Assembly: GCA_014360465.1 (NCBI GenBank)
Contig: JACIXQ010000008.1
Coordinates: 1 to 46,508, forward strand
DNA: 46,508 nucleotides
Reading direction: 5' to 3'
Source: a bacterium
GTDB lineage: Bacteria; Armatimonadota; JACIXR01
Position 1 is the stretch's first letter. Each line of letters opens with the position of its first letter. Positions 3,635 to 29,208 of the stretch are shown here, piece by piece. Below the pieces are notes generated by a model. It was not told where the DNA came from. It searched no databases and was given only the letters and a program-made list of their open reading frames with translations. The position numbers and the translations under genes are program-made.

Positions 3635-3744
3635 ATTTGACTAAATTATTTTAGCAAATAAATAAAAAACGGCAAATGATAATGTTTCCATCTTAAGCAA
3701 TTATTATCTCATCTACTTCACGGTGCTTTTAGCGAACCCGAATG

Positions 3745-5850: not shown

Positions 5851-5879
5851 TTCACGGGTAGCTTGTGCAAATTTATAAT
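5851..5879 (+). promoter_or_regulatory. putative sigma70 promoter for dnaE (-35 TTCACG, 17-bp spacer, -10 TATAAT)
   Basis: Hexamers and spacing read directly; about 105 nt upstream of the dnaE start region. Confidence 0.35.
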
Positions 5880-5991
5880 TATCAATGTCTTTCTTAGGTT
5901 TTTCAATCCTTGCTTTTCCCCGTCCCCTCTAATATAATATTAACAATAAATCCCCACCTCAAAGGAGGGCTGAGAGCCTGCAATATGTCTT

Positions 5992-11125: not shown

Positions 11126-11677
11126 TCACCTCAAAACCCCCCATATATCTGGATGGGGAGAAGCAATTACAGAGGTGCCCACCAAAATGCCCTCTTTGGC
11201 TGCCTGTGCTGCTCCCGCTTCAACCGCTGATGTCACAGCGGAGACCTTGCCTGTCAGGGTGACGAAAGATTTTCCTCCTAAACCCCTCGCTACTCTTATC
11301 TCTATCAGCTGGACATTCGCCGATTTGGCAGCAGCATCCGCAGCCAGGATAGCCGAGGATATAGACCAGGTCTCTATTATCCCTATAGCTTCCCCTATCT
11401 CAAATTCCGTCGTGGCATTGAGGGCAGGGAAGACAGAAGGATGAAGGTTAGCAATTATCATTTTATCAATAACATTATCCTCACCAAAGGCTAAAGCTGA
11501 ATTCAAGGATGTCTCAACTTCTGCCACATCTCCACCGATTACTACGGTGAACTTGCCAGGGCAAAGTGGCGTAGCCACATAAAGGTTGACCTTTGCCGAT
11601 TTTAACATCAAATCCAGCGCCTCAACTCCCCTCGCTATGGAAACGAATTCAATAACTCCTAATGCATTCTGTGTCAT
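11126..11677 (-). CDS. pduT: tandem-BMC-domain shell protein, PduT-like (putative 4Fe-4S pore)
   Basis: 183 aa with two BMC repeats. 'ALGVIEFVSIARGVEALDLMLKSAKVNLYVATPLCPGKFTVVIGGDV' is closely similar to the Salmonella PduT N-terminus, including the cluster-ligating Cys in C-P-G-K-F. Confidence 0.8.
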   Translation of the reverse strand: MTQNALGVIEFVSIARGVEALDLMLKSAKVNLYVATPLCPGKFTVVIGGDVAEVETSLNSALAFGEDNVIDKMIIANLHPSVFPALNATTEFEIGEAIGIIETWSISSAILAADAAAKSANVQLIEIRVARGLGGKSFVTLTGKVSAVTSAVEAGAAQAAKEGILVGTSVIASPHPDIWGVLR

Positions 11678-12699
11678 CTCTCTCCTCCTTCCTGCATAAC
11701 AACAGGTATTGGCTCACCACAATTTGGACAGCGTCCATTCTTTATTTTAATTGAAAGAACCCTGAAAACATAGCGACTGATGAGACACATCCCACAGGAG
11801 GGACAGTATGTGTTCTCATAGCGATGCCCCGGTATATTCCCAATATAAACATATTTTACCCCTTTTCTTTTGGCTTCCCTGTAAGCCCACTCCATCTTTT
11901 CTATATCCGTAGGAGGGGCATGGAAATGATAGGCGGGGAAATAACGAGTAAAATGCAAAGGAACGGATTCTCCAGCGTATTTCAAATGTTGCTCAATCAC
12001 CCAATTGACAGCCTCTTCACTATCATTCACCGAGCTAACCATAAGGGAGACAATTTCAAGATGCATACCGAGTTCACGGGCTATCTTAGCATTTCGCCAG
12101 GGTATGTATGCATCCGCTTTGAGGAATTTCTCGTAACTCTCTGGGACACCCTTGATATCTATTTTTATCGCATCCAACCCCGCTTCTCTCAAACCTTCCA
12201 GAGCTTCAACCGTCATATATCCATTGGACACGATACAGGTATAAAGCATTTCTTTCTTTGCAAGCGGGAAGAGCTCAAAACAGTATTCGTAAAGAAGAGT
12301 TGGCTCGTTGAAGGAAACACAAATGCCCTGGTCCTTGCCTACAGCCATATTTATAACCTCTTGGGGTGAGATGAACCTCGTCTCCTCCACAACCTCTTTT
12401 GAAAGATGCCAGTTCTGACACCAGGGGCAGGGAAAGTTACAAGAATATGTTGAGATAGTTAGAGAAGATGTACCAGGATAAAAATGATAAAAGGGCTTAA
12501 TCTCTATAGGACGCGATTCTATAGCGCTTAGATTTCCATAAGAAAGAGTGAATAGCTCGCCATCTTTATTCACCCTCATCCGGCAGAACCCTCTTTTCCC
12601 CTCCTCTATGAGACAATGCCTTTCACATAGATGGCACTTGATGTTATTCCCCTCCACTCTCTCCCAGAGCAAAGCTCTTTTCATAGCAACTATTATCAT
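11674..12699 (-). CDS. radical SAM enzyme, AmmeMemoRadiSam (AmrS)/PflX-like family
   Basis: 341 aa. N-terminal 'CHLCERHCLIEEGKRGFC' followed by 'IEIKPFYHF...CNFPCPWCQNW' (CxxxCxxC), as in TIGR04337-type enzymes. The C-terminal cluster is 'CPSCGMC...CPNCG'. It overlaps both neighbours by 4 nt. Confidence 0.65.
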   Translation of the reverse strand: MIIVAMKRALLWERVEGNNIKCHLCERHCLIEEGKRGFCRMRVNKDGELFTLSYGNLSAIESRPIEIKPFYHFYPGTSSLTISTYSCNFPCPWCQNWHLSKEVVEETRFISPQEVINMAVGKDQGICVSFNEPTLLYEYCFELFPLAKKEMLYTCIVSNGYMTVEALEGLREAGLDAIKIDIKGVPESYEKFLKADAYIPWRNAKIARELGMHLEIVSLMVSSVNDSEEAVNWVIEQHLKYAGESVPLHFTRYFPAYHFHAPPTDIEKMEWAYREAKRKGVKYVYIGNIPGHRYENTYCPSCGMCLISRYVFRVLSIKIKNGRCPNCGEPIPVVMQEGGER

Positions 12700-14003
12700 T
12701 CTTTTCTAATCCTTATTTCCTGCGAAGTTATAGTGCTGATTACCCCATCTATAGAAGCGTGGATTCTCGCCCCAAGGGCTCCCTCCGGTATCTCTGCTAT
12801 CAAATCCCCTCTTTTCACCTTGTCCCCCACTTTCACAACGGGCTTTGCTGGCGCTCCAGCATGCTGTTTCAAAGGAAGTATCACCTCTTCCGGCTGATAA
12901 TCTACATCGCTTAGAGGTGCTGGAACATCGTAGATAGTGAGTCCGAGGCGAGATATCAGCCTGCTCGTGGGAACCCTTTTGGCGGAAAAGAGGGCTCTGG
13001 TTGAAGAAGGCTTATTTCTGTGAGGGTTGGGAATCTTATGTTCGCTAAGCTTCTGTTTTAGTGCCTGGATTATTCTCCTGGGGGAAAGTCCCATTGGGCA
13101 AGAATAATTCTCGCACAACCCACAATCGCAACAAAGGTAAGCCTCCGTCAATTTATCCTCCTCAGCGAGCCTCCAGGAAAGTACTTTCATTAAAAGGTGG
13201 GGCTCCATAGAATGTCCGAGGAGATAGCGGGGACACAATTCAGTGCATTCCCTGCAGTTACAGCAGGTTGATACTGCCCTACGGAGAACAGCGCTTAAAT
13301 CAGGCGAAAACTTCCCCCACAAAGGATGAGTTTTGGGGAAAACGAGGATACCTTTGGTAGTTTTCTGGATTGGGTAATCAAGCGAGGGGATCAACTTGCC
13401 CGTGTTCGGTCCACCTTCTACGATGAAGAACTCCTCAACGGTTGGACCTCCAGCGAGCTTCAGGGCATCCCTCACAGGAGTCCCAACTGGAAGCTTGAAG
13501 GTGCTTGGCTTCTGAACAGCTCCGCCCACTGTGACATATTTATCAACCACTGGTTGACCATCCATAGCTTTCCCAATGTTTATAACCGTCTCAACATTCA
13601 GGACGACGCAACCAACATCTAAAGGAATTCCACCTTCCGGCACGATTCTCTTGGTTACATCGTAGACAAGTATCTGCTCATCTCCTGCAGGGTAAAAATC
13701 TCCCAATATGAAAATCTCGTGCGGACCGCCGCCCTTCAACGCTTCAACAGCCTGTTTGTATTTTGCCTTCAGCGCAACGATGCCCTTCTTCGCCCTCACA
13801 GCTTCCATCGCCGCCTGCAACCCCCTGAGAAATATGGACTTCTCCCTGGGCAGGATTTGTTGGTCAACCCTCAGGAGCGGCTCGCATTCAGCTCCGTTAA
13901 CTATAAGGAACTCTGCTTGGGATGATAACTTTATATGGGTAGGGAAACCCGCTCCACCAGCTCCAACGATACCAGCTTCCCTTGCAACATCGGATAGCGC
14001 CAT
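12696..14003 (-). CDS. pduS: PduS-like RnfC-family flavin/Fe-S oxidoreductase
   Basis: 435 aa. 'GIVGAGGAGFPTHIKL' is the RnfC/PduS NADH-binding motif. It has two ferredoxin-type clusters, 'CCNCRECTELCP' and 'CCDCGLCENYSCP'. The stop overlaps the AldDH start. Confidence 0.75.
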   Translation of the reverse strand: MALSDVAREAGIVGAGGAGFPTHIKLSSQAEFLIVNGAECEPLLRVDQQILPREKSIFLRGLQAAMEAVRAKKGIVALKAKYKQAVEALKGGGPHEIFILGDFYPAGDEQILVYDVTKRIVPEGGIPLDVGCVVLNVETVINIGKAMDGQPVVDKYVTVGGAVQKPSTFKLPVGTPVRDALKLAGGPTVEEFFIVEGGPNTGKLIPSLDYPIQKTTKGILVFPKTHPLWGKFSPDLSAVLRRAVSTCCNCRECTELCPRYLLGHSMEPHLLMKVLSWRLAEEDKLTEAYLCCDCGLCENYSCPMGLSPRRIIQALKQKLSEHKIPNPHRNKPSSTRALFSAKRVPTSRLISRLGLTIYDVPAPLSDVDYQPEEVILPLKQHAGAPAKPVVKVGDKVKRGDLIAEIPEGALGARIHASIDGVISTITSQEIRIRKE

Positions 14004-15421
14004 CAGAGAATGCCACCGGTTAAAATAAACCTTCTCCTTCTACAGAAATCCCTTGGACGAGTTGGTCCCTCTCCTGTGGAGGCAACCGTCATAGCGAGGT
14101 AGCCTTCACCATCCGTGCCAACCGCTGCTGTGGAAGGTCCGTTGATTATGCAATAATTTGTATGCATCTCCTGGCGGAAACGAAGGATATTGGGTAAACT
14201 GCGAGAATGAAGTATAGATGTATGCTTGAAACCTTGTTCCGCTTTCTGAACAAGTCTCAACCCTTCCTCAAAGTTTCTTACCCGAACAAATGGGAGAACA
14301 GGAAGGAGTTGTTCCTCCATAACAAGTGGATGGTCTGTATCGCTTAGTTCTATAACGATTATCTTGGGTTCCTCTTGCGTTATAATTCCCGCCCGACGGA
14401 GGATTTCACCCGCGTCCAATCCCACCACTTCCCTCTTAATTTTGCCATCAGCAATTATCAGATTGATAATTCTCTCGGCTTCATCTCCTCTTGCTTCATA
14501 GGCTCCTTGCCTTTTCAGCTCGCGCATCAGGTTATCGGCTATGGAATCCACAGCGATGATAACCTTCTCGCCTATACAAAGGATATCATTATCGAAAGAT
14601 GCCCCCTTAATTATATCTGCCGCTGCCTTGGCTATATCAGCGGTCTCATCCACCAAAACCGGTGGATTGCCAGGACCCCCAACGATTGCCTTCTTCCCAC
14701 TTTGAAGAGCTGCTTGACAAACTCCCGGACCTCCTGCCGCCGTTACCATATCGACTTTCGGATGCTTCATCAACTCCTGAACAACTTCAATGGAGCTTTC
14801 GGCAACCGCTGTAACGAGGTTTGGAGGTCCACCCGCTTCCACAATCGCACGATTGATCACCCTTATTGCTTCCTTCGTGCACTCCTTCGCCTGGGGGTGT
14901 GGAGAGATAACAACGGCGTTACCGCCAGCTATCATCAAAATAGCGTGGCTGATAACGAAAGAAGTAGGATTGGTCATAGGGGTTATGGAGAGGATGACAC
15001 CAAAGGGCACATACTCTTGGATAGTAGTACCTTTTGGACCAACGATTATCTCCGGCTCCAGGTCTTCCATTCCAGGGGTTAGGAGGGCAGCTGCCTCGTT
15101 TTTCGCCACCTTGTGTTCCACTTTCCCCATCTTGGTTTCCTCCCTAGCCATCTCGGCAAGGCGACGGGCGTTCTTCAGGGCAGCTTGACGGATAGCTTCT
15201 ATAATCTGCCGCCTCTTATCCAGACCAAGGGCAAGGAGTTTTTTCTGCGCCTCAGCCGCCGCCTCAACAGCCTCATTTGGTGTCTGGAATATTCCATCAT
15301 CCCCTACCCTTGAAACCGGCTGGGCGCTCCTCTGGGAAATAGATGCTTGCCCTTCAAATAGCTCCTTTATAACTCTCTGAACCACTTCCCTTATTCTTTG
15401 CTCATCCAAAGCCATAGGCAA
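14003..15421 (-). CDS. CoA-acylating aldehyde dehydrogenase (PduP/EutE family) with N-terminal encapsulation peptide
   Basis: 472 aa. The amphipathic N-terminal helix is 'EQRIREVVQRVIKELF'. It has an ALDH fold with catalytic Cys in 'DNDILCIGEKV', the BMC-type AldDH family. Confidence 0.8.
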   Translation of the reverse strand: MPMALDEQRIREVVQRVIKELFEGQASISQRSAQPVSRVGDDGIFQTPNEAVEAAAEAQKKLLALGLDKRRQIIEAIRQAALKNARRLAEMAREETKMGKVEHKVAKNEAAALLTPGMEDLEPEIIVGPKGTTIQEYVPFGVILSITPMTNPTSFVISHAILMIAGGNAVVISPHPQAKECTKEAIRVINRAIVEAGGPPNLVTAVAESSIEVVQELMKHPKVDMVTAAGGPGVCQAALQSGKKAIVGGPGNPPVLVDETADIAKAAADIIKGASFDNDILCIGEKVIIAVDSIADNLMRELKRQGAYEARGDEAERIINLIIADGKIKREVVGLDAGEILRRAGIITQEEPKIIVIELSDTDHPLVMEEQLLPVLPFVRVRNFEEGLRLVQKAEQGFKHTSILHSRSLPNILRFRQEMHTNYCIINGPSTAAVGTDGEGYLAMTVASTGEGPTRPRDFCRRRRFILTGGIL

Positions 15422-15432
15422 CTACCTCCTTC

Positions 15433-15702
15433 TTATTTGCCAATATCAATGGAATCTATGATGCCCACTATAGAGGCATCAACTGGCGCCTCCGGGTTAT
15501 CAACCGCCAATCTTGCAGGAGACCCAAGAGCCACAACGACCATCTCACCGATACCAGCTCCAACAGTATCAACAGCAACAAACGGGTCGCCTCTTTGCTT
15601 ACCCTCTGGGGTAAGGGGCTGAACTACAAGGAGTTTGAAACCCTTAAGGTCCTCTTCCTTGCGAGTTGAGACGACCATACCTATTACCTTCGCTATTATC
15701 AA
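15433..15702 (-). CDS. BMC vertex pentamer (BMC-P; EutN/PduN/CcmL family)
   Basis: 89 aa. 'MIIAKVIGMVVSTRKEEDLKGFKLLVVQP...DTVGAGIGEMVVVALGS' is the typical EutN/CcmL fold sequence. Confidence 0.8.
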   Translation of the reverse strand: MIIAKVIGMVVSTRKEEDLKGFKLLVVQPLTPEGKQRGDPFVAVDTVGAGIGEMVVVALGSPARLAVDNPEAPVDASIVGIIDSIDIGK

Positions 15703-16322
15703 TTTCCTTCCTCCTCCTTTATTTGGATTCCTAATCTCTCCGCCAACTCACGTGCCATATCCGTCACGATCGAGCCCTGAGGAATTACCAAAACCTGTAA
15801 TCCCTTCTCTTTGCTCTCCCAGATGTCCTCCTGAGTTATTATCGTGCGTGGAGAAGGAGAGAGTGAGGACGCCGGTTTAGAAGCTTGGGGGGTTCTTATA
15901 CCGAGAGAGAGAATCTTCTCCCAGTGGCTTCTCAGGAGCTCTGCCAGCGCTTGAGGGCATTGGGGAGGAATGGTCAAAGGCTCAACTATTGGGGTTTTAC
16001 CCTGTAGAAGAAGATTCAGAACTGCCTCAAGCGGAGGGGTATCAAATAGTCCAAGGGATATTTTAGCCACATCCGCCCACTTGACATTCACCAGCCAGAT
16101 TTCCTCAAAAGCATCTATCGCCTGGTTTTTACTCCAAATTAAAGGGGATTTTCCCTCCCTTCTCAGCTTATCGAGGAAATCTTGGGGTGGTGAATTGTGG
16201 AGGGATATGACCAGGACCAGCTTTCCCTGGGAAGAAGGGACAGGAGGCGGGACCGCCTCCTGGTTCGTTAAGAGGCGACGAACCTCCGCCTCCACAAGTT
16301 GAACAAGGCGGTCTATATCCAC
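15699..16322 (-). CDS. hypothetical BMC-associated protein with N-terminal encapsulation-peptide-like helix
   Basis: 207 aa. N-terminal 'IDRLVQLVEAEVRRLL' amphipathic helix, then a Pro-rich linker 'PPPVPSSQG'. Its C-terminus, 'VLVIPQGSIVTDMARELAERLGIQI', matches no family that I can assign. It is not PduL (no HxH repeats). Confidence 0.45.
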   Translation of the reverse strand: MDIDRLVQLVEAEVRRLLTNQEAVPPPVPSSQGKLVLVISLHNSPPQDFLDKLRREGKSPLIWSKNQAIDAFEEIWLVNVKWADVAKISLGLFDTPPLEAVLNLLLQGKTPIVEPLTIPPQCPQALAELLRSHWEKILSLGIRTPQASKPASSLSPSPRTIITQEDIWESKEKGLQVLVIPQGSIVTDMARELAERLGIQIKEEEGN

Positions 16323-16363
16323 CCTGGCTTCCTTCCCTTAGTTTTTGATAAGGGAATCTCCTT

Positions 16364-16663
16364 TTATAGCTTGAACTTCTCCAACAGCTTCTCCAGGCTC
16401 TCGTGCGGTCGGGCAATGATGTGGACGGAAATGACCTCTCCTACTTTCTTGGCATTTGCAGCTCCGGCATCAACAGCAGCTCTGACAGCACCTACATCTC
16501 CTCTCACCATAACGGTCACATAAGCTGAACCAACCTTCTCATAGCCCACGAGGACAACATTAGCTGCCTTGACCATTGCATCGGCAGCCTCAATCGCACC
16601 TACAAGTCCTCGGGTTTCAATCATTCCTAATGCTTCCATTCTCACAGCGGGGGCTTCAGCCAC
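16364..16663 (-). CDS. BMC-H hexamer shell protein (PduA/J-like)
   Basis: 99 aa. '[32 protein letters not shown]' is the canonical BMC domain. Confidence 0.85.
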
Positions 16664-16708
16664 CCGAAATCACCTCCTTAAGGATTTTTGAATTGTTTTT
16701 GTATTTTC

Positions 16709-17026
16709 TCATTCTATTTCAAGAAATTTCTGCCTTTCAGAGCCTACGGTTTCCCTACTTTCTATTAGGAAAACGAGGCTCTCCACCGGGCGAGGTATAA
16801 TATGAAATGACACAACTTCACCTACCTTTTTCGCCTCAGCCACTCCAGCTTCCACCGCGGCCTGAACCGCCGCCACATCTCCAGCAAGTTTAATCACGAG
16901 CATCCCACCACCACCTTTCGCGAGCTCATATCCAATTAATCGGACAGAAGCAGCTTTACAAGCCGCATCAGCCGCAGTCAATCCAGCGGTCAAACCCTTA
17001 ACCTCTATCAGACCTATTGACTCCAT
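16709..17026 (-). CDS. BMC-H hexamer shell protein with short C-terminal extension
   Basis: 105 aa. 'IGLIEVKGLTAGLTAADAACKAASVRLIGYE' is a BMC domain. It overlaps the aldolase 3' end by 29 nt. Confidence 0.8.
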   Translation of the reverse strand: MESIGLIEVKGLTAGLTAADAACKAASVRLIGYELAKGGGGMLVIKLAGDVAAVQAAVEAGVAEAKKVGEVVSFHIIPRPVESLVFLIESRETVGSERQKFLEIE

Positions 17027-17768
17027 CCTTGTTCAATTCCTCCAGAACTTTCCTTGTTATCCTATCAACCAGTTTCTGCATATCTATATTTCCCAGAGCA
17101 CAGAGACCACAATCCTCGCAGATAGGATTTGAAGAGACCCTATTGCGGGATTGCAAAAGTTTTAACACCTCTTCAGTAGTAAGAACCCTCTCCCTTCCCA
17201 AGAGGCGAGCAAGTAGCGATATCTTTGCATAATGCTCCAGCGTCTCCATCCGGTAATAAGCCTGAATGGGGCTATCACCAACCGTAAAGGCACCGTGGTT
17301 TTCAAGAAGAACCGCGTTTCTGTTTTTTATATATGGTCTTATTGCCTCAACAAGCTCGGGAGTGCCCGGCGTTCCATAGGGAGAAAGAGGAACTCCGTCA
17401 AGATGAAGAATTGCTTCGGGAAGGATTGGATGTTCAAGGGAAATTCCTGCCACAGCGAAGGCAGTTGCGAAAGGAGGGTGGGCGTGAAGAACAGCTTTCA
17501 CATCGGGACGCTCCTTGTAAATCATCAGATGGACAAATATCTCCGATGATGGCTTCAGATAACCCTCGGTGGCGTTTCCGTCCATATCCACTTTCACTAT
17601 CATATCAGGAGTCATAAACCCCTTTGAGACACCGGTGGGGGTTGTGAGGACAAAATTATCGTCCAACCGGCAAGTGATGTTTCCATCGTTGGCTGCGACG
17701 AAACCCTTCTGCCAGAGCCGTCTGCCAACTTCTATTATTTCTTGTCTTAAAGCGCTTTCCTTTTCCAT
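16998..17768 (-). CDS. class II aldolase (L-fuculose/rhamnulose-1-phosphate aldolase family) with C-terminal Cys motif and encapsulation peptide
   Basis: 256 aa. It has an Aldolase_II fold ('GFVAANDGNITCRL', 'HAHPPFATAFA'). The C-terminal tail 'PICEDCGLCALGNIDMQKLVDRITRKVLEELNK' carries a CxxCxxC triad followed by an amphipathic helix. Confidence 0.8.
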   Translation of the reverse strand: MEKESALRQEIIEVGRRLWQKGFVAANDGNITCRLDDNFVLTTPTGVSKGFMTPDMIVKVDMDGNATEGYLKPSSEIFVHLMIYKERPDVKAVLHAHPPFATAFAVAGISLEHPILPEAILHLDGVPLSPYGTPGTPELVEAIRPYIKNRNAVLLENHGAFTVGDSPIQAYYRMETLEHYAKISLLARLLGRERVLTTEEVLKLLQSRNRVSSNPICEDCGLCALGNIDMQKLVDRITRKVLEELNKDGVNRSDRG

Positions 17769-18080: not shown

Positions 18081-18109
18081 TTGACAAATGTATTTCCTTG
18101 TCTTATCCT
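18081..18109 (+). promoter_or_regulatory. putative sigma70 promoter for the M28/FtsX operon (-35 TTGACA, 17-bp spacer, -10 TATCCT)
   Basis: Hexamers read directly. Followed by RBS AAGGAAGGG and the ATG at 18154. Confidence 0.3.
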
Positions 18110-18153: not shown

Positions 18154-21100
18154 ATGAAAAAATCGTTACTTATAGTAATGGTTGCTTTCCTGTCTATCTC
18201 TCTTTTGCGAGGACAGGAAAAGGTGAAATTGACCCCCGAATTGCGGAAGCTTTACGGGGAGCTGACCTCAGCTGTAAAGGAGGAAAACATCAGGGATGTA
18301 ATTACGAAGCTTTCCTCCTTCCCAAGCCGCGTCACAGGCTACCCCGGTTGCGATGAAGCAGCAAAATTCGTGAAACAGAGATTTGAAGAGCTGGGTCTCC
18401 AAGATGTCGTTATGGAGGAATTTACAATTCCCACCCCCTATGATAGGGGAGCTACCCTGGAGATTCCCTCCCGCAATATTAAGATGAGGATTTACCCCCT
18501 CTGGCCTAACGCTATAAGGACTCCTTCCCTTCCCCCTGAAGGTGTAAGAGGACCTCTGATCTATGCTGGTGACGGTCATCTCCAATTTTTTGATGGAAAG
18601 AAAGTAGAAGGTTCAATCGCCCTTTTGAAATTCAACTGTGGAGTCCGTTGGTTAAATGCCCCTCGTTTGGGTGTAAAAGTTGTTCTCTTTGAGGAACCCG
18701 ATATAACTATGAGAGGCGAAGCAGAGGCAAAATTCATTTCAATACCCATTGATATAGCTCGCTTCTGGGTTCGCAAGGAAGATGCCCAGGTCTTAAGGAA
18801 GATTATGTCCGAAGACCCATCGGTTGAAGCGATTGTGAAATGCTCCATGCCTTGGGAATTGAAAAAGGGTTACAATGTCATTGGTTTTTTGCCCGGTACG
18901 GATGAGAAATTGAAAAACCAACTGATAATCGTGGAATCATTCTTCGATTCCATCTCCATCGCTCCTTCTCTGGCTCCGGGAGCGGAAAGTGCTTCCGGCA
19001 TCGCCGCTCTCCTGGAAATAGCTCGCATTTTCAAAGAAAGACCACCAAAGAGGTCGGTTCTTTTCATCGCCACTTCCGGGCACTTTGAGGCGCTTAGCGG
19101 GATAAGGGCTTACTTTACAAAGCACTTCAAGGAATATGAAAAGCTCGGTCCTATGGAGAAGATAAAAGGATTCTTTGCACGTGTCTTCCATACCGGATAC
19201 AAGCCGCGAGAGATAAAGAAGGTTTACCTCTTCACGGGATTGGACCTCTCAAGCCAATCACAAGCTATCGGAATATTCTACAAATCTATGTTCTACGAGA
19301 TAAGGGAAGACCGCCAGAGGGATTTCTCCGATATTGCGAGGGTATGTAGAGAGAATGCAGAGAGGGTAGCGGAATTTATGAAGATTAAGCCCGAGCTTAT
19401 TTTCGCTGATGGTATTAATCCAATAGCGGGTAAGCCTTGGAGAACCTTCATTCCTGGAAAAGCCGCCCTTGATGCTGAGCTTTTTACTATGATGGGCGGC
19501 TATGGCGTTTCTTTCTTCACAATAAACGATTCCCGTTCCCTCGTTGATACTCCCTTTGATACAGTTGATAGGATGAACTTCCCCAATCTTATGAGACAGG
19601 TAAAGCTACTTGCTTGCCTATACCATCATATTTTCAATGACCCACCGCGTAAAGGGACGACCACCGCACTTCGCTTCCCGATAACTGAACCATCAAAGAT
19701 AGAACGCTTGGGCTTGATGAACGGGTTCGGCACATTAGCAGGTAGAGTTGTCTATTTCGACCCCAGGAAAAGCTTCATACCGGATGTCCCAATTCCCAAT
19801 TCAATAGTTATCCTCAAACATTGGAATAAGAGTATGATGGGTGTGAGGGGACATATGATAGAGATGACGGACAAAGATGGTAAATTTGAATTCAATGGAG
19901 TAGCTACCATAACGGCAATAGGATGGCGTAGACCGGCAACAGTAAATGCTTATAAATTAGATGATAAAACCGGAGAAATCATCTATGCACCCGACTTAGG
20001 TGCAATGGGTGCGGAGGCTTACCCAGTGGATGCGATGATGACTGTTGGGAAGAAGTATGTGACCGTCGTTGCTTTCCGCTGTGCTTCCCTTTCAATATTT
20101 GACCTCGTTGACCCTCAGGGATTGGCAATCCTTACAAATATTGCCATTCTTGATGGGATAACTGACGGTACACCCAGGATGTATGGACAGGCGATAAGCT
20201 TACCAGAAGCTTGGATGCCTCATGTGGATGACTGCGCCGTTATATTTGCTGAGCCAGGTAGCCGAATTAAGGTTATAATGGGCGCCGGTCCAGCGGCGAT
20301 AAGGTTCCTCCTTCTCCACGCAACTCCGAAAAACCCCAAGGGCGATGGCTATGAGGTTAAAGGTTCAGGGACTCTCTACTTTACCCCTTATAAAGTTGCT
20401 AAGGATATGTGGATCTGGGATGAATACCGTATGTCCAAGCTCCGCCGTTTCCGCATCATAAATGATGTGTTGGAAGACCTTCACAGAAGGGCAAAGGAAG
20501 AATTGGACAGAGCGGAAAAAGAATTAGCTCAACTTAATTATAGTCGGTTTTACGCTCACGCGAGAAGTGCTTGGGGCTATGAGACTAGGGCTTACCCCGT
20601 AGTAAGGAGCACGGGAGATGATGTAGTAAGGGGCGTAATCTTCTATATGGCGATAGTCATTCCATTCGCTTTCTTCCTTGAGAGATTGCTATTCGCCTTT
20701 CCGACTCTCATTCAGCAACTCGCTGGCTTGGGTGGGATATTCCTTGCAACCTTCGTCCTTTTCCGTTACCTCCATCCTGCCTTTGAAATCGCCCTCAACC
20801 CGCTCGTCATCCTCCTTTCCTTCGTGATGCTTGCTATGGCTGGGGCGGTCGCAGCTGTAGTCGTGGGTAAGTTCCAAGAGCAATTGAAACTCCTACATCG
20901 TTCCCTCACTGGTGTTCACAGAGTGGATATCGGTAGGTTCTCAATTGCTGCCTCGGCTCTATCACTTGGCATCTCCAATATGAGACGAAGAAAAGCGAGA
21001 ACAGCGTTGACCTGTATTACCTTGATAGTTCTGACATTTGCCGTGCTTGCTTTCACTTCCGTGAAGCCGGTGATGCGCTTCAATAAGGTACCAGGCAAGG

Positions 21101-22683
21101 GCGTGCCTGCATATCAAGGAGTTATGCTGAGAACTCCTATGTGGAGCGAATTACAGGAGGTTGCCTATAGGTTATTGCACGACGAGTTCACATCCAGGGG
21201 CTATAAAGTATCTCCTCGTATCTGGTTCTACACCTCCGCCTGGGATGAGCAATCCTTCGTTACGCTCGTTTCCGCAGCTAATCCGTCGGACACATATGAT
21301 GTCAAAGCTTTAATGGGGCTCGGACCCGAGGAATCAAGTATAACCAGACCACAAAAAGCGCTAAAAGCAGGGAGATGGATAGAGGCTAAAGATACGAATG
21401 TGTGTATTATTCCCGAAGGAGTGGCGAAGAAGCTGAAGATAAAGGTAACCGATGTTGGCAAAGCCCAAATACTCATCGGTGGAGTGAAATTCACGGTTAT
21501 AGGTATTTTAGATAATAATAAATTCAAGAAAATAAAAGACCTGGATAACGAACCTATCACTCCCGTTGACTTCGTAGCGATGCAGAAACAACAGCAGCAA
21601 GGGCAAACCAGCCAGCAAGCTGGTTTTAGAGAATACATCCATCTTGAACCCGATGCCGTTGCAATCATTCCCTACCAAACCCTACTTAATATGGGCGGGA
21701 CCCTTCGCTCCGTTGCTATTGACCTCGTTTCCGCTGAAGAAGTCAAGAGGGTTCTCGGCGACCTGATGCCTCGCTTAGCTTTAAATATGTACGCAGGTGA
21801 GGGCAACAAAATCTCCCGCTACTCCACCCTGGCAATTTCTGCACCCGTCGGTTGGACAGAGCTTGCTATTATAATCCTCATAGCTGTTCTCATCGTCTTG
21901 GATACGATGTTGGCAGCTGTATATGAAAGGGTCAGGGAGATAAGGATATTCGCTTCGCTGGGCTTAGCTCCTAACCACATTGCTATGCTTTTCTTCGCTG
22001 AAGCATTGGTATACGCCGTCATCGGTGCCATAGCCGGTTACATTGTGGGACAAACGGTCGTGAAAATCTTGATAGCAACCGGAAAGATTGGTCACCTCTA
22101 CCTCAACTTCTCCTCAATGTCCGCTGTTCTTGCCACCTTCGTCGTTGTTGCTGTGACACTTCTCTCTACAATCTACCCCGCAAGAAAAGCTTCCGAGGTT
22201 GCCACCCCGGCACTCGAGAGAACCTGGACATTACCCGAACCAGAAGGTGATGTCTGGAACATTACCCTGCCCTTCTCCGTTACTGGTGAGCAATCCCGCG
22301 GTTTAGCTGGTTTCTTGAAAGAATGGCTTGAAGCTTACGAGGAATATTCGGTAGGTGATTTCGTAACCGCGGATGTTAAAGCTCATACTTTTGTCAAATA
22401 CGATATGAAGGGCTACCAGATTGATTTTATGACCTGGCTCGCACCCTTCGACCTCGGTGTTAGCCAGAGGGTGAGTATGATCATTGACCCAACGACTATC
22501 AAAGATGTTTACGACATAAAGATGGTGATAAAGAGGGAAAGCGGCGATGTTGCCAACTGGAAGAGAGTCAACCGCCGGTTCCTCAATACAATTAGAAAAC
22601 AATTCCTTATCTGGCGCACGATAAGCGTCGCCGATAGGGAAAGGTATGTGAAGATGTCCGAAGAAATAGCCGAACTCGCTTAA
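18154..22683 (+). CDS. giant fusion protein: secreted M28-like peptidase/PA ectodomain + FtsX/MacB-type (ABC3) permease domain + C-terminal cytoplasmic domain of unknown function
   Basis: 1509 aa. Signal peptide, then M28-family signatures ('NVIGFLPG', 'GAESASGIAALLEIARIF', 'LFIATSGHFEALSG') in which canonical Zn/catalytic residues appear substituted. There are multiple TM helices and a typical FtsX motif, 'AAVYERVREIRIFASLGLAP'. The permease module begins at 'MRRRKARTALTCITLIVLTFAVLAFTSV'. Confidence 0.6.
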   Translation: MKKSLLIVMVAFLSISLLRGQEKVKLTPELRKLYGELTSAVKEENIRDVITKLSSFPSRVTGYPGCDEAAKFVKQRFEELGLQDVVMEEFTIPTPYDRGATLEIPSRNIKMRIYPLWPNAIRTPSLPPEGVRGPLIYAGDGHLQFFDGKKVEGSIALLKFNCGVRWLNAPRLGVKVVLFEEPDITMRGEAEAKFISIPIDIARFWVRKEDAQVLRKIMSEDPSVEAIVKCSMPWELKKGYNVIGFLPGTDEKLKNQLIIVESFFDSISIAPSLAPGAESASGIAALLEIARIFKERPPKRSVLFIATSGHFEALSGIRAYFTKHFKEYEKLGPMEKIKGFFARVFHTGYKPREIKKVYLFTGLDLSSQSQAIGIFYKSMFYEIREDRQRDFSDIARVCRENAERVAEFMKIKPELIFADGINPIAGKPWRTFIPGKAALDAELFTMMGGYGVSFFTINDSRSLVDTPFDTVDRMNFPNLMRQVKLLACLYHHIFNDPPRKGTTTALRFPITEPSKIERLGLMNGFGTLAGRVVYFDPRKSFIPDVPIPNSIVILKHWNKSMMGVRGHMIEMTDKDGKFEFNGVATITAIGWRRPATVNAYKLDDKTGEIIYAPDLGAMGAEAYPVDAMMTVGKKYVTVVAFRCASLSIFDLVDPQGLAILTNIAILDGITDGTPRMYGQAISLPEAWMPHVDDCAVIFAEPGSRIKVIMGAGPAAIRFLLLHATPKNPKGDGYEVKGSGTLYFTPYKVAKDMWIWDEYRMSKLRRFRIINDVLEDLHRRAKEELDRAEKELAQLNYSRFYAHARSAWGYETRAYPVVRSTGDDVVRGVIFYMAIVIPFAFFLERLLFAFPTLIQQLAGLGGIFLATFVLFRYLHPAFEIALNPLVILLSFVMLAMAGAVAAVVVGKFQEQLKLLHRSLTGVHRVDIGRFSIAASALSLGISNMRRRKARTALTCITLIVLTFAVLAFTSVKPVMRFNKVPGKGVPAYQGVMLRTPMWSELQEVAYRLLHDEFTSRGYKVSPRIWFYTSAWDEQSFVTLVSAANPSDTYDVKALMGLGPEESSITRPQKALKAGRWIEAKDTNVCIIPEGVAKKLKIKVTDVGKAQILIGGVKFTVIGILDNNKFKKIKDLDNEPITPVDFVAMQKQQQQGQTSQQAGFREYIHLEPDAVAIIPYQTLLNMGGTLRSVAIDLVSAEEVKRVLGDLMPRLALNMYAGEGNKISRYSTLAISAPVGWTELAIIILIAVLIVLDTMLAAVYERVREIRIFASLGLAPNHIAMLFFAEALVYAVIGAIAGYIVGQTVVKILIATGKIGHLYLNFSSMSAVLATFVVVAVTLLSTIYPARKASEVATPALERTWTLPEPEGDVWNITLPFSVTGEQSRGLAGFLKEWLEAYEEYSVGDFVTADVKAHTFVKYDMKGYQIDFMTWLAPFDLGVSQRVSMIIDPTTIKDVYDIKMVIKRESGDVANWKRVNRRFLNTIRKQFLIWRTISVADRERYVKMSEEIAELA

Positions 22684-24694: not shown

Positions 24695-25864
24695 ATGCGG
24701 ACGATAAAAGCTGGAATTATTGGAACAGGCTTCATCGGACCAGCCCATATTGAGGCAGCCAGGCGTCTCGGATTCGTTGATATCGTTGCCCTTGCCGAGG
24801 TGGACCTGGAGACGGCGGAAAGAAAGGCTAAGGCATTGAATATTCCACGATATTATGGAAGTTACGAGGAGATGTTGGAAAAGGAGAAGGAAATAGAGGT
24901 AATTCATAACTGCACCCCTAACTCCCTGCATTACGAGATAAGCAAGGTTTGCCTTTCTATGGGAAAGCATGTTATTTCCGAGAAACCGCTTGCGATGAAC
25001 TCCAAGGAATCAAGGGAGCTTGTCCTGCTGGCAAGGGAAAAAGGATTGGTAAACGCGGTTGACTTCAATTACCGCCATTATCCCCTCGTCCAACAAGCGA
25101 AAGCAATGGTCGAGAAGGGCGAAGTGGGTAAGATATATGGCATATTCGGCACTTATGAACAGGATTGGCTTTATCTTGATACGGATTATAACTGGAGGAT
25201 TGAGCCCGAGCTTGGGGGTGAGTCCCGAGCAGTAGCTGACATAGGCACACACTGGTGCGATACCGCACAGTTTATAAGCGGCTTGCGTATCAAAGAAGTA
25301 TTTGCCGATATGGCTATAATCCATAAGACGAGAAAGAAACCCAAGAAGCCGATAGAAACCTACGCGGGCAAAGAGCTTACTCCAGAGGATTACGAAGAAG
25401 TTCCTGTGAAGACGGAGGACTATGCGACGGTTCTCATCCATTTCGAGGGAGGAGCTGTAGGAGTCTTCACCGTCTGCCAGGTATTCGCGGGAAGGAAAAA
25501 CAGATTGTATATAGAGATAACGGGTTCAAAGTGCGCCCTCGTCTGGGACCAGGAAGACCCGGAAAGGCTGTGGATTGGCAGGAGGGAAGCCCCCAATCAG
25601 ATCTTGATGCGCGACCCATCTTTGCTTCATAAAGAAGCAAAAGACTATTGCCACTATCCAGGCGGACATCCTGAGGGCTATCCTGACGGGTTGAAGAACT
25701 TCCTGCGTAATGTCTACAGATTCATCGCCGAAGGGAAGAACCCAAACCAGGACCCTTGCGACTTCCCAACTTTCTTGGATGGACACTACGAGATACTTAT
25801 GGTTGAAGCTGTTCTCAAGAGTGCCAGAGAAGGAAGATGGGTTGAGATAAATTACGACCTATAA
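24695..25864 (+). CDS. Gfo/Idh/MocA-family NAD(P)-dependent oxidoreductase
   Basis: 389 aa. 'IKAGIIGTGFIGPAHIEAARRL' Rossmann motif and 'EKPLAMN' motif. Confidence 0.75.
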   Translation: MRTIKAGIIGTGFIGPAHIEAARRLGFVDIVALAEVDLETAERKAKALNIPRYYGSYEEMLEKEKEIEVIHNCTPNSLHYEISKVCLSMGKHVISEKPLAMNSKESRELVLLAREKGLVNAVDFNYRHYPLVQQAKAMVEKGEVGKIYGIFGTYEQDWLYLDTDYNWRIEPELGGESRAVADIGTHWCDTAQFISGLRIKEVFADMAIIHKTRKKPKKPIETYAGKELTPEDYEEVPVKTEDYATVLIHFEGGAVGVFTVCQVFAGRKNRLYIEITGSKCALVWDQEDPERLWIGRREAPNQILMRDPSLLHKEAKDYCHYPGGHPEGYPDGLKNFLRNVYRFIAEGKNPNQDPCDFPTFLDGHYEILMVEAVLKSAREGRWVEINYDL

Positions 25865-25931
25865 GAAACAAAACCTGCAGTTTTTCGTCTAAAAATAGTA
25901 GAAGCAAATAGATAATGGACAGTGATGCGAT

Positions 25932-27029
25932 GTGAGGAAGTTATGTTGGTTGCTATTATTTGCCCTTCTGCTGGTTCCCTTCCTTGCTTATCCTCTAACG
26001 AGAGAGGAAGAGATACAAATTGGTAGAGAAGCGGCAGCTGAGGTAGAGAAAGAATACAAGTTAAGCGACGATAAAGACCTTTTGGATAAGGTAGACAAAA
26101 TAGGCAAAACGATAGCCGCTGTCTCGGAAGACCCATCGCTACCTTGGACGTTCAAGGTGGTCGTCTCCGATGAAGTGAACGCTTTTACTCTGCCCGGTGG
26201 TTTTATTTACATAACCACCGGGCTACTAAATTTTGTAAGAACCGACGACGAATTGGCGGGAGTAATAGCACACGAGATTGCCCACGCCGCAAGGCATCAT
26301 TTCATCAAGCTTGCCGAGCAACAAGCTAAAACGGAAAGACAATTGGCACCATTTCTTTTAGCGGCTCTCCTTGGCACACAAGGAAGCGATTTGGAAAACA
26401 TCTATTTGGGTCTTCAGCTCGTGGAGATAGCCAAAATGCATAGCTACGGGCAAGCTCTTGAAGAAGATGCGGATTTAGCTGGCGCAAGATACCTGATTTT
26501 ATCGAAAAAATATAATCCCGCAGGCATATTAACTTTCCTCCAAAGATTAGCGAGAATGGAGGAAAGAGGAGTTAAACAAGAACTTGGCATTTTACAAACT
26601 CACCCATATGCCAAAGAAAGAACCGCTAACTTGCTTACCTTCCTCCGCAGCACGGGAAGCGAATTCAATGAACGGAAGGCAGCTGGTTTGTACAAGCTAT
26701 CTGTTCGCCCCCAAGGGGTGGATGTCACTGCTGTATATATTGACGACCAACTAATTGCCCAGTTCACAGGAGAAAACGGCAAACGAGCAGGCGAAATATT
26801 AGCTGAGAATTTGGACCAATTGTTGGACCAGAACCTTCGCGTTTGGGAAGTAAGTGCCAAATTATTGCCAAATGGGAATCCAGCAGTAGTAGCAAGGAAT
26901 AAAGTCCTGATAGAAATTACCACCGATATACTTCCCGATAAAGGCAAGGACCCCTTAACCTACGCTCAGACAATTGCTGGGAATATAAGACAACGGCTTC
27001 TGAAAGAATTTATAAACCAAATATATTAA
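25932..27029 (+). CDS. secreted M48-family (Ste24/BepA-like) zinc metallopeptidase
   Basis: 365 aa. Signal peptide, 'HEIAHAARHH' HExxH motif and downstream 'EEDADLAG' glutamate. Confidence 0.7.
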   Translation: MRKLCWLLLFALLLVPFLAYPLTREEEIQIGREAAAEVEKEYKLSDDKDLLDKVDKIGKTIAAVSEDPSLPWTFKVVVSDEVNAFTLPGGFIYITTGLLNFVRTDDELAGVIAHEIAHAARHHFIKLAEQQAKTERQLAPFLLAALLGTQGSDLENIYLGLQLVEIAKMHSYGQALEEDADLAGARYLILSKKYNPAGILTFLQRLARMEERGVKQELGILQTHPYAKERTANLLTFLRSTGSEFNERKAAGLYKLSVRPQGVDVTAVYIDDQLIAQFTGENGKRAGEILAENLDQLLDQNLRVWEVSAKLLPNGNPAVVARNKVLIEITTDILPDKGKDPLTYAQTIAGNIRQRLLKEFINQIY

Positions 27030-27084: not shown

Positions 27085-29208
27085 TCATTTATCTGTTAAT
27101 GCTATTTTTCTTTCGGATTTTCCCTCTCTTCCCGCCATCCATTTTCTTGCTAACTCAACTGGCACTTCCTCAATCAAAATTACTGCAATCACGGGCATTA
27201 AAAGAAAAACACTCGCTACAACTCCTGAGTCATTAAAAATAAATGCCACTATTGTGCATATTAAAACCGTCTTCAGCCACAACGAGCTATCTTTTTTAGC
27301 TAAGTAAAACCTCAATATATAATAAAGAAATAGCAAAATGCACTCGCCTATGAGAGTAACAGTCCAATCGCTATAGCGAAGGAGTCTTACATTTGTCATT
27401 ATCTTTCTCTGGACTATTTCAAATAGAATATCAGCTTTCCCCAAAAGGAGGTTTCGGAAAGCCAAACCAATATGTGTGCCGCGAGTTAGTGTATCAAAAA
27501 TGACGGGCAAGCACACCATCATTATAAAGATAGCGACCAAGTAGAGCTTCACCCTACCCCTGTGTCTTAAATGGTTGATTGAAAGATAAATAAAACCAGC
27601 TAAAAGGGTAATCAATCCACCCCAATTAGCACCCCACCATGGAGCACCGACGAGAATGGCATAGATGAGCCAAAGGAAACGCTGAAGGAAATTGTTTCCA
27701 TAATGGTATAAAAGAACCAGTAGATAACCAACAAGCAGTCCCATAAACTCGTTTCCAATACCGTAATATCTCGCCCCTTCCTCAACGGAGTGCCCTATCC
27801 CAGAAGAAGCCATAAGCTGGCTTCCGTGTAATAAATCAAAACTAAGAAAAACGATTGTAGCTATTGTTATATAAAGAAGAGACTTTGAGGGATAGAAAGA
27901 ACAGATAAAAAACAGAAGAATGGTTAGGATGCTCAAGGAAAATATAAGGGGTAACTCAGTAAGGGATAAAGGCGCAAGCAAGAGAAGGGCAAAGGGGAAA
28001 AGCAGGGGGATCAAAATTAATAAGCGATAAAAGGGGTTAAGTAAAGGTAAAATGAAACCGAGCAAAAGGAAAGTAAGGGTAAGGGCTACAATATGAGCAC
28101 TTATAATTTTGTGTATTGTCCAGCTTCTCCAACTCCGCTCCCTAATACGCAGGATAGTTTTAATTGGTTCATCAATAGATTTAGAATAAAATGTTTTTCC
28201 CAAAAAAAGACGTTTAGGTCCGCCAAAAAAAGAGGCTATCGTGGGAGAGAAATCATAATGGGAAACTACCCCCAATGTTTTTGTTGTCCCGGAGGTAAGC
28301 AACCCCTTTAACCCGTTCCCCATCGCTATTACTGGCGATAAATTTCTCCCTTCCTTTAGTGCCCATCGCCCAGGATAAGGTGCCGTTATAATGAATAAAT
28401 CTTCATCGCTCAAATAATGAAGGATAAATCCAACCATATCGTCTACCCTACTGAGAAACTCACCTATTAAGGTTTCCCTTCTATTCTCGTTTAAATAAGG
28501 ATATTGGAGGTCTATCCTCAAAGAGTCACCCGTCTCAATGATGAGCACTATATTATCTAACTGCAAATATTTTCTCAAAGCATCCTTTAAAGCAGAGAAA
28601 TTCGTCCGCACCCCACCGGGGAAGCAAGGGTCCAGCACCAACAGTTTATCGCTTACATCTCCTCCCTTTACAATTCCCCGAGAATCAACCAAGGCTAAAC
28701 TTGCCTCCCTGTGAGGTTCTCCTAAAATATCCCCGTTTCCCAAAAGTATCGTTTTTATCCCTTTTTCAACCAATAAATCTCCTAAAAGATGATAATCAGT
28801 TTTCCCTTTTAAACTTTGATTTGCCTCCACAAGTGAAGGAAAACCTATATGTAAAAGAGCATCTGGAGGTGGGGAGACACCCCAAAGCCTTTCAAACTGT
28901 ATATCAGCTTTTGTTCCCTTATAGAATTCATCCGCTCCAAAGCAAAGACGCGCTTCTTCCCCACCCTTAATCATCCTTGCCGTTCCCATTGCTAAATATG
29001 CCGATTCCGAAGGATATTTTTTGTATAACCGACAATTCGCGAGCCCTACTGCTCCCCTCTCAGCTACAAATAATATGTTCTTATATTGACTATTGTAAAG
29101 CTCCTCAGGCGTTATTCCTGGGAGTGATACAATTACTGCCTTACGAGCAAAAAGTGTATAACTAAATAATAGAAAGAGGAAAATAATTATCCTTTTCATA
29201 TTAGCCAT
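27085..29208 (-). CDS. membrane protein: N-terminal extracytoplasmic alkaline-phosphatase-superfamily-like domain + C-terminal polytopic TM domain
   Basis: 707 aa. Signal/anchor, then 'VVSHYDFSPTIASFFG' (sulfatase/LtaS/EptA-like terminal motif), then about 10 hydrophobic helices. Its topology is reversed relative to LtaS/EptA. Confidence 0.4.
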   Translation of the reverse strand: MANMKRIIIFLFLLFSYTLFARKAVIVSLPGITPEELYNSQYKNILFVAERGAVGLANCRLYKKYPSESAYLAMGTARMIKGGEEARLCFGADEFYKGTKADIQFERLWGVSPPPDALLHIGFPSLVEANQSLKGKTDYHLLGDLLVEKGIKTILLGNGDILGEPHREASLALVDSRGIVKGGDVSDKLLVLDPCFPGGVRTNFSALKDALRKYLQLDNIVLIIETGDSLRIDLQYPYLNENRRETLIGEFLSRVDDMVGFILHYLSDEDLFIITAPYPGRWALKEGRNLSPVIAMGNGLKGLLTSGTTKTLGVVSHYDFSPTIASFFGGPKRLFLGKTFYSKSIDEPIKTILRIRERSWRSWTIHKIISAHIVALTLTFLLLGFILPLLNPFYRLLILIPLLFPFALLLLAPLSLTELPLIFSLSILTILLFFICSFYPSKSLLYITIATIVFLSFDLLHGSQLMASSGIGHSVEEGARYYGIGNEFMGLLVGYLLVLLYHYGNNFLQRFLWLIYAILVGAPWWGANWGGLITLLAGFIYLSINHLRHRGRVKLYLVAIFIMMVCLPVIFDTLTRGTHIGLAFRNLLLGKADILFEIVQRKIMTNVRLLRYSDWTVTLIGECILLFLYYILRFYLAKKDSSLWLKTVLICTIVAFIFNDSGVVASVFLLMPVIAVILIEEVPVELARKWMAGREGKSERKIALTDK

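Follow-up and report, generated by a model that had tools for sequence, protein, structure and literature searches.

A giant M28/FtsX fusion protein as candidate signature subunit of an uncharacterised envelope machine in Armatimonadota

The gene considered here lies at positions 18154-22683 (+) of a 46,508-nucleotide (nt) contig from an Armatimonadota metagenome-assembled genome (MAG; contig JACIXQ010000008.1, assembly GCA_014360465.1); this whole stretch of DNA is called the window below. From an ATG start it encodes a protein of 1509 amino acids (aa), in which a large exported head derived from the M28 peptidases is fused, through extra transmembrane (TM) helices, to a permease module of the MacB/FtsX type. 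In most of its relatives this "giant" gene heads a conserved cluster that also encodes an ATP-binding cassette (ABC) ATPase. We put it at somewhat better than an even bet (a probability of roughly 0.55) that the giant protein and its partners form a heteromeric type VII ABC mechanotransducer, driving the fused, peptide-handling head and coupled to an OPT-like permease; about as far, we lean towards an uncharacterised envelope machine, found across Armatimonadota, with the giant protein as its large, signature subunit. No description of this architecture or gene cluster was found in the literature.

An earlier note on this DNA, made from the sequence alone, had proposed that an M28/PA ectodomain and extra TM helices are fused here to an ABC3/MacB-type permease ending in a cytoplasmic tail of about 150 aa. 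Pfam matches, hydropathy and AlphaFold2 (AF2) models agree on this layout (Table 1). Pfam places Peptidase_M28 at residues 241-325 (3e-10, 40.6 bits against a cut-off of 21.3, with only profile positions 1-81 of 193 covered), FtsX (PF02687) at residues 1237-1347 (1.2e-13, 51.6 bits against 25.5) and, barely at its gathering score, MacB_PCD at residues 1047-1140 (27.4 bits against 27). The motifs that the note had quoted are all there: GAESASG at 276-282, SGHFEALSG at 308-316 and ERVREIRIF at 1258-1266. The topology is concordant between hydropathy and the AF2 models, with some 800 aa predicted to be exported between the N-terminal signal (residues 1-20) and the extra TM helices, and both the overall four-TM fold and the large periplasmic core domain between TM1 and TM2 are present. 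The AF2 model of the ectodomain has a mean predicted local distance difference test score (pLDDT) of 93.4 and a predicted template modelling score (pTM) of 0.92.

The protein has more than 120 full-length homologs (1437-1830 aa, 46-89% identity), named merely "FtsX-like permease family protein," "M28 family peptidase" or hypothetical; the closest, with 89% identity, is encoded by MAG CALITO01. A relative is present in at least 578 GTDB species genomes (one genome scanned per species), several of which are closed chromosomes. The survey of loci described below covered the best 80 of these, 58 of which had enough downstream DNA to be judged. Where a taxon is named, essentially all of the 80 belong to Armatimonadota, including Chthonomonas calidirosea, Armatimonas, Fimbriimonadales, Capsulimonadaceae and HRbin15; one locus (L068) carries the label "Candidatus Hebobacteria."

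In the giant's head the M28 fold and its substrate cleft are kept whole. Against sequences in the PDB, a family profile matches the AM-1 aminopeptidase 2ek8 (2.1e-23), and also YwaD, nicalin and the transferrin receptor TfR1, the last over residues 39-179 of the giant protein. In alignments, 2ek8 is covered over 355 residues including its PA domain, and TfR1 and GCPII over about 352-355 residues. The PA family (PF02225) is precomputed for four of the homologs. The active site is another matter. Its positions were mapped by alignment to AAP, 2ek8 and YwaD and counted column by column over 121 family members (AAP numbering). Among the five co-catalytic zinc ligands, the equivalent of Asp179 alone is retained (D364, invariant): His97 is replaced by F263 (Tyr or Phe in the family, His in 3 of 121), the bridging ligand Asp117 by E278 (105 Glu and 15 Asp among the 121), Glu152 by F311 (mostly Phe), and His256 by D465 (Asp in 119 of 121). 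Asp99, which supports His97, is present as the invariant D265, while the catalytic base Glu151 is H310 (His in 120 of 121). In 79 distant long representatives the pattern is unchanged, and none of them has the canonical site.

The earlier suspicion that several canonical zinc and catalytic positions are substituted is thus borne out, for four of the five zinc ligands and for Glu151. The further suggestion of a non-catalytic ectodomain like that of the transferrin receptor fares less well: the canonical ligands are gone, but the residues replacing them are near-invariant in the family and in the distant representatives, which speaks against decay. Because the replacements are themselves so constrained, the site looks re-purposed rather than dead. 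As judged from the alignments, it is neither a di-zinc aminopeptidase nor a decayed one, but a strongly constrained Asp/Glu/His pocket, and the conserved set D265, E278, H310, D364 and D465 argues for a putative binding or catalytic function. No characterised M28 enzyme is known to function with a site of this kind.

The M28 aminopeptidases with a PA domain (2ek8 of Aneurinibacillus, Bacillus subtilis YwaD [6hc6] and Pseudomonas aeruginosa PaAP) therefore differ from the giant head in all their zinc ligands except Asp179, and in the catalytic Glu. With the M28B proteins (GCPII/PSMA and the transferrin receptor) it shares a PA insert in a protease-like domain, and unlike those of the transferrin receptor, nicastrin and nicalin, its replacement residues are invariant. 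It also continues differently from the transferrin receptor and GCPII, into about 230 residues of beta-sandwich, then a three-helix stalk (744-822) that enters the first TM helix of the membrane machine, without a helical dimerisation domain: beyond residue 340 there is no Pfam or PDB sequence match to TFR_dimer, and the model consists of the beta-sandwiches and the stalk. The beta-sandwich region (residues ~520-745) has no Pfam or PDB sequence match either, and no family was assigned to it.

The surroundings of the giant gene in other genomes are strikingly regular. Where the cluster is complete, its order is fixed: giant, OPT-like permease, a protein of about 300 aa called p300 here, a PqqD-like protein, a small FtsX and a LolD/MacB-type ATPase. 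The giant gene heads this six-gene cluster in four of four distant genomes, and 51 of the 58 informative loci have all five partners in the same order, with genes often overlapping by 4 nt. Two others, including that of the window's lineage (the other is L055), have the polytopic OPT-like gene only, and five, including the closed genome L027, have no partner within 10 kb. These exceptions fall on at least four separate branches of a neighbour-joining tree; the cluster has been split at least four times independently. In a Desantisbacteria-labelled MAG the order is permuted, with the PqqD-like, small FtsX and ABC genes first, then a gene for a DUF6785 membrane protein, then giant and OPT-like; a truncated 245-aa gene before the PqqD-like one may be p300. 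Since the same genes are found together in a different order, their linkage has survived rearrangement.

Some loci carry further genes. At L088 (1-12802) and L089 (MNUP01000003, Desantisbacteria-labelled) a 660-aa polytopic DUF6785/DUF6784 protein is encoded directly upstream of the giant gene and a Laminin_G_3 protein downstream, and the giant itself has a discoidin (F5/F8 type C) insert; in a metagenomic fragment (P0496), FtsX and the tail are fused to DUF6785. The DUF6785/DUF6784 protein was considered as a paralog of the OPT-like partner and rejected (hhalign probability 0.2%). Five Chthonomonadales loci (L035, L038, L041, L047 and L006) have a lineage-specific seventh gene between OPT-like and p300, for a membrane protein of ~278 aa that starts with several TM helices and ends in a DUF1559-like ("H-X9-DG" pseudopilin-associated) domain. 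The genes found between giant and OPT-like in some Chthonomonadales (for a methylase, an S9-like peptidase and an AAA protein) are heterogeneous insertions, and were rejected as components.

The first partner is also present in the window, tightly linked to the giant gene (Table 1), but was overlooked in the earlier note; a homolog follows the giant gene in 59 related loci. The window copy has no Pfam match even at E ≤5. Its family, however, has 1951 matches, several with a precomputed match to the OPT family (PF03169) and some named "peptide transporter" by NCBI, and PF03169 was found in 3 of 37 sampled members (about 50% identity; best E 1.5e-9). By this transitive homology, the partner is placed in a deep, divergent branch of the OPT superfamily: similar to PF03169 proteins in size (~650 aa) and in its ~14-16 TM helices, distinct from them in sequence and in its linkage to the giant gene. 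Of the other partners, the ATPase (~246 aa) matches LolD best among NCBIfam models (TIGR02211, 2.8e-69), followed by MacB, DarD, DevA and FtsE, and 46 of 49 copies have intact Walker A, signature and Walker B motifs. The small FtsX (~210 aa; PF02687, 6e-19) has four TM helices and no periplasmic domain, the outside loop being just ~25 residues long. The PqqD-like protein (~145 aa; PF05402, 1e-9) has no TM segment. Neither has p300 (e.g., L014 16602-17501), which is predicted to be cytoplasmic and has no match in Pfam, NCBIfam, PADLOC or PDB sequences. A profile search with it found 159 proteins; the 120 matches listed have no functional annotation, and the few with a named organism are from Armatimonadota. 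Cys110, Cys270, Cys299 and His300 of p300 are invariant, Cys113 and His143 nearly so, and it has the look of an internal two-fold repeat; the conserved residues probably form a Zn site.

The window retains just the first two genes of the cluster. The earlier note's remark that there is no ABC ATPase in the operon is accurate for this DNA, and neither the window nor its 89%-identical relatives have a cognate ATPase within at least 20 kb. As a statement about the family it does not hold, with ATPase and small FtsX present at 51 of 58 loci; the design is accordingly not one of an FtsX protein working without an ATPase. The absence here is a local, lineage-specific rearrangement, in which the ATPase has moved away or been lost, and the last four genes of the cluster are presumably encoded elsewhere in the genome of this organism. 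Two p300 homologs, with source patterns resembling those of the sister MAG, were considered as the detached module of this lineage and rejected, as they belong to other organisms. The only ABC ATPase, and sole Walker A protein, in the window is a single-ORF (open reading frame) fusion of CbiQ (the ECF T-component) to an ABC domain, 22 kb from the giant gene (45120-46406, +). With about 32% identity to the MacB-type ATPase of the cluster, it is unrelated.

What the window protein has kept also bears on the ATPase. Conservation along the giant protein is highest in the coupling helices (926-950 and 1251-1275; 0.89 for residues 926-950) and in the C-terminal domain. Of 337 positions with a conservation of 95% or more among the other members, the window protein has kept 320, and its changes are mostly conservative. 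Compared with a sister MAG that has the same split arrangement, the proportion of synonymous differences (pS) is saturated at ~0.7-0.8, while that of nonsynonymous ones (pN) is 0.035-0.051 in the tail, TM2-4 and the coupling helix; for the segment with the major coupling helix, pN is 0.051 and pS 0.74. Coupling helices and tail thus remain under strong purifying selection within this split lineage. The conservation of these parts, the positions kept and the low pN argue that the ATPase interface may still be in use there.

The C-terminal domain had been described as one of unknown function. It is there, with a length close to that proposed, but its nature can be stated more closely: it has a helix-grip-like fold, and is the hallmark domain of a family with over 1000 clusters. 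Among 1.84 billion proteins, a search with the tail only matched 1458 cluster representatives (1096 at E ≤1e-10), and the domain is nearly always at the extreme C-terminus of proteins of 1450-3053 aa. Sampled variants keep the core of M28, FtsX and tail and add other domains. LysM repeats with NMB0315 domain I occur in a cluster that includes a Candidatus Poribacteria-labelled protein; other variants have Big_5 Ig-like domains or a discoidin domain, and P0098 has a parvulin peptidyl-prolyl isomerase insert.

From these parts a mechanism can be proposed. The FtsX module of the giant protein would pair with the small FtsX in an asymmetric, LolC/LolE-like heterodimer, binding two copies of the ATPase through the conserved coupling helices. 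The TM and stalk helices would transmit ATP binding and hydrolysis to both the periplasmic core domain and the fused head, and the ATP cycle might alter the binding or cleavage of a peptide or protein N-terminus by the D265/E278/H310/D364/D465 pocket. The logic would be that of FtsEX-EnvC or FtsEX-PcsB, except that the effector is part of the motor subunit itself. The peptide ligand or product may cross the membrane via the OPT-like permease, while the PqqD-like protein and p300 would work in the cytoplasm and might dock on the helix-grip tail. A peptide as substrate is suggested by a pocket derived from an aminopeptidase, by partners resembling OPT and PqqD, and by the parvulin insert in P0098. 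The earlier note's picture of a mechanotransducing envelope machine is still the best reading, given the MacB-type module, both coupling helices and the LolD/MacB-type ATPase in the clusters of relatives.

Comparison with known type VII ABC systems fits this in part. With MacB, LolCDE, FtsEX, HrtBA, YtrEF and YbbAP-TesA, the giant protein shares the four-TM FtsX fold, a periplasmic core domain placed between TM1 and TM2, and both coupling helices, major and minor; the cognate ATPase of the family is likewise of the LolD/MacB/FtsE type, and LolC/LolE are a precedent for an asymmetric pair of different FtsX subunits. Precedents for an ATP cycle that controls a periplasmic hydrolase, FtsEX-EnvC/PcsB and YbbAP-TesA, are described in two papers (PMC7668044, PMC12646458). 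In contrast to these systems, the effector-like head of the giant protein is covalently fused, N-terminally and through three extra TM helices; the second FtsX of the cluster lacks a periplasmic domain altogether; in the giant, TM4 leads to a helix-grip cytoplasmic domain; and the OPT-like permease, PqqD-like protein and Zn protein are not known from those systems. NCBIfam equivalog models score far below their cut-offs on the giant protein (lolCE 29 against 362 bits, LolC 20.8 against 473, ADOP 28.2 against 622).

Several points weigh against the proposed mechanotransducer. A tblastn search of the window with the partner proteins found no gene for a cognate ATPase, small FtsX, PqqD or p300, and the four detached genes were not located elsewhere in the window's lineage, where they may have been lost. 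The heterodimer, the coupling to the head and the peptide substrate are steps we infer. The assignment of the partner to OPT is remote, with no direct Pfam match for the window copy and no PDB match by profile, and the PqqD match is under the NCBIfam cut-offs. As to the substrate, the LysM, NMB0315 domain I and discoidin domains carried by distant variants indicate glycan or peptidoglycan and not free peptides, and the helix-grip fold is typical of lipid or small-hydrophobic-ligand binding, not of peptide binding; the true substrate could be cell-wall or lipid-linked.

A wider proposal building on the mechanotransducer is decidedly tentative, and rather less probable than not. It would be an undescribed envelope pathway, near-universal in Armatimonadota and present in Poribacteria- and Desantisbacteria-labelled MAGs, in which a type VII ABC motor drives an M28-derived head, rebuilt around a new, invariant Asp/Glu/His centre, for a new kind of ATP-gated processing, or export and maturation, of periplasmic peptides or protein termini, coupled to an OPT-like permease, a PqqD-type chaperone (like those recognising ribosomally synthesised and post-translationally modified peptides, RiPPs) and a Zn protein. 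Such a pathway could be essential for envelope biogenesis in these phyla.

Among other explanations, one in which the system remodels peptidoglycan or the envelope survives best, and is nevertheless unlikely. Here the ATPase would switch the fused, hydrolase-like head on stem peptides, as an analogue of FtsEX-EnvC, FtsEX-PcsB or FtsEX-CwlO, with the OPT-like protein recycling the peptides. The glycan-directed domains of the distant variants would suit it. Against it, the FtsX equivalog model of NCBIfam has no match to the giant protein and is sub-threshold for the small FtsX, the best models being lolCE, ADOP and MacB; genes for division or the cell wall are not conserved beside the cluster, in the four distant genomes or at the CALITO01 locus; and FtsEX systems have nothing that corresponds to the PqqD-like protein, p300 or the OPT-like permease. 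M28 enzymes are also, as far as we know, not among cell-wall hydrolases.

A second alternative, a little less probable, is that the head is a tethered catalytic metallo-exopeptidase with an unconventional carboxylate/His metal site, feeding the OPT-like importer for nutrition while the FtsX part anchors or gates it. The complete M28 fold with its cleft, the five conserved residues that remain as potential ligands or catalysts, the linkage of giant and OPT-like genes even where the cluster is split, and the NCBI name "peptide transporter" for partner-family members are all consistent with this. Against it, both His ligands, as well as Glu151 and Glu152, are replaced (by Tyr/Phe, Asp, His and Phe), a nutritional peptidase would have no need of an ABC motor together with PqqD-like and Zn proteins, and about 50% identity across a whole phylum would be unusual for nutrient scavenging.

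Third, the permease might act as a scaffold or signal transducer, passively and independently of any ATPase, for a binding ectodomain that is non-catalytic like that of the transferrin receptor. The window and its close relatives, the five loci with no partner gene nearby and the loss of the canonical M28 ligands would all be expected on this account, which we still consider improbable: the ATPase and second FtsX are clustered with the giant gene in most relatives, at least four independent splits show that unlinked is not equal to absent, the coupling helices are among the best-conserved parts even in a split lineage, and the new pocket residues do not vary, as those of a decayed site would.

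Fourth, two PADLOC profiles raise the idea of a membrane effector in a nucleotide-second-messenger defence pathway. PDLC01991 ("CARF_m8--CARF_LolE_TM") matches residues 777-1491 of the giant protein at 2.2e-65, the tail alone aligning to positions 546-683 of its 810, and PDLC01990 ("CARF_m8--CARF_Beta-galactosidase_LolE_TM") matches at 6.3e-35. The CARF_m8 names reportedly go back to the Makarova et al. 2020 CARF census, where they are said to be listed among CRISPR type III-associated CARF families, so that the chassis appears to be already catalogued there. Stalk, TM helices, periplasmic core domain, FtsX and C-terminal domain are clearly homologous to these profiles; the head is M28/PA, not beta-galactosidase-like. 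The window protein stops ~127 profile positions short of the end of the CARF_LolE_TM model, so the domain that gives the label is probably absent. No Rossmann-like CARF ligand-sensor domain was recognised in the giant protein, its own tail being helix-grip-like; this tail, and the lack of a defence-like context in the loci examined, argue that the protein probably shares the chassis of the CARF_m8 group without its sensor. The defence reading was rejected on these grounds, and is very improbable.

The weakest possibility, that an M28 peptidase gene and an FtsX permease gene were falsely joined in assembly or annotation, as the earlier note had allowed, is negligible: the full-length architecture recurs in the more than 120 homologs and at least 578 genomes with their closed chromosomes, conservation is unbroken across the proposed junction (20500-21000), the stalk helix passes straight into the TM helix in the AF2 model, and no support was found beyond one related contig (L090) with the protein in pieces, a frameshifted long-read assembly. 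In that contig the giant is spread over four ORFs (588-7860), the end being fused to the OPT-like gene, in frames 3, 1, 2, 2 and 1; it was considered as a natural split architecture and rejected in favour of a frameshift-ridden long-read assembly or a pseudogene.

The remaining features of the window are less directly connected to the giant gene. A few bases 5′ of its ATG there is a purine-rich stretch resembling a ribosome-binding site (aaggaagg), and the promoter candidate further upstream agrees with the consensus at 10 of 12 positions, a consensus match only and so weak evidence. Downstream of the giant/OPT-like pair, in this lineage only, a GFO/IDH/MocA oxidoreductase and an M48 (BepA/LoiP-like) periplasmic protease are encoded (24695-27029, +), with gaps of 24 and 67 nt; as there is no terminator-like site between the genes, all four may form a lineage-specific operon. 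Divergent from the giant gene is a bacterial microcompartment (BMC) locus (10805-17768, -), which looks like the sugar-phosphate/aldehyde type (similar to the Planctomycetes-Verrucomicrobia microcompartment, PVM) in an Armatimonadota MAG. At 4000-5615 (+), followed by dnaE, genes for an SBP_bac_11 binding protein and a BPD_transp_1 permease represent an ABC importer of the molybdate/tungstate/sulfate type with no adjoining ATPase gene; it is a second ABC system in the window whose ATPase is unlinked. Three large, uncharacterised genes (for the 707-, 1226- and 979-aa proteins of Table 1) are probably related to carbohydrate metabolism.

Table 1. Location of the giant gene, its parts and other features in the window (residue numbers are those of the giant protein).
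Feature	Position	Strand	Remarks
Sigma-70-like promoter candidate, TTGACA-17-TATCCT	18081..18109	+	~45 nt upstream of giant start codon
Giant gene	18154..22683	+	M28/PA head, stalk, three TM helices, MacB/FtsX module, helix-grip-like cytoplasmic domain
Predicted signal peptide or signal anchor MKKSLLIVMVAFLSISLLRG, residues 1-20	18154..18213	+	Hydropathy; lipobox Cys absent
M28 aminopeptidase fold, complete, residues ~37-495	18262..19638	+	Metal site remodelled: F263, D265, E278, H310, F311, D364, D465
PA (apical) insert within M28 fold, residues ~100-235	18451..18858	+	
All-beta region (beta-sandwich domains), residues ~520-745	19711..20388	+	Between head and stalk; AF2, high pLDDT
Three-helix stalk, residues 744-823	20383..20622	+	AF2 helices 744-765, 771-792, 796-822; leads into first extra TM helix
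Three extra TM helices, residues 824-903	20623..20862	+	N-terminal to FtsX module; hydropathy and AF2 helices
Cytoplasmic linker with major coupling helix (…SLGISNMRRRKAR…), residues 904-951	20863..21006	+	AF2 helix 928-945
FtsX TM1 (952-970), then MacB-type periplasmic core domain, residues 952-1232	21007..21849	+	
FtsX TM2-TM4, residues 1233-1345	21850..22188	+	Includes minor coupling helix ERVREIRIF (1258-1266)
Cytoplasmic C-terminal domain, residues 1352-1509 (158 aa)	22207..22680	+	Beta-alpha-beta4-alpha2 helix-grip (Bet v 1/START/AHSA1-like) fold
OPT-like partner gene, 656 aa	22700..24670	+	~14-16 TM helices; 17 nt downstream of giant gene
Tandem-BMC protein	11126-11677	-	
Radical-SAM protein	11674-12699	-	
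RnfC/Nuo51-like flavoprotein	12696-14003	-	
Aldehyde dehydrogenase	14003-15421	-	
89-aa ORF	15433-15702	-	Counterpart at locus L003 with EutN/CcmL
BMC-H shell genes	16709-17026, 16364-16663	-	
Class II aldolase	16998-17768	-	
707-aa protein	27085-29208	-	No Pfam match
1226-aa protein	35530-39210	+	Weak DUF5696 and DUF6259 matches only
979-aa GxGYxYP-family putative glycoside hydrolase	39254-42193	-	

FtsEX, LolCDE, MacB and YbbAP are the model for how ATP hydrolysis in the cytoplasm does mechanical work in the periplasm, and in all characterised type VII ABC cases known to us the effector is a separate protein. An effector-like domain fused to the motor subunit places the coupling path, from stalk through extra TM helices to FtsX module, within one polypeptide, and the very high AF2 confidence of the head makes it attractive for structural study of mechanotransmission. 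Also unusual are the re-purposed M28 site, the proposed asymmetric FtsX pair and the grouping of OPT-like permease and PqqD-like, peptide-binding protein with an ABC motor. The window also carries a caution about reading a single stretch of DNA: "no ATPase nearby" reflects a lineage-specific rearrangement, not a feature of the design. As the cluster is conserved in a poorly studied phylum that has cultured members, its function is directly testable, and it may reveal a lineage-specific essential envelope process.

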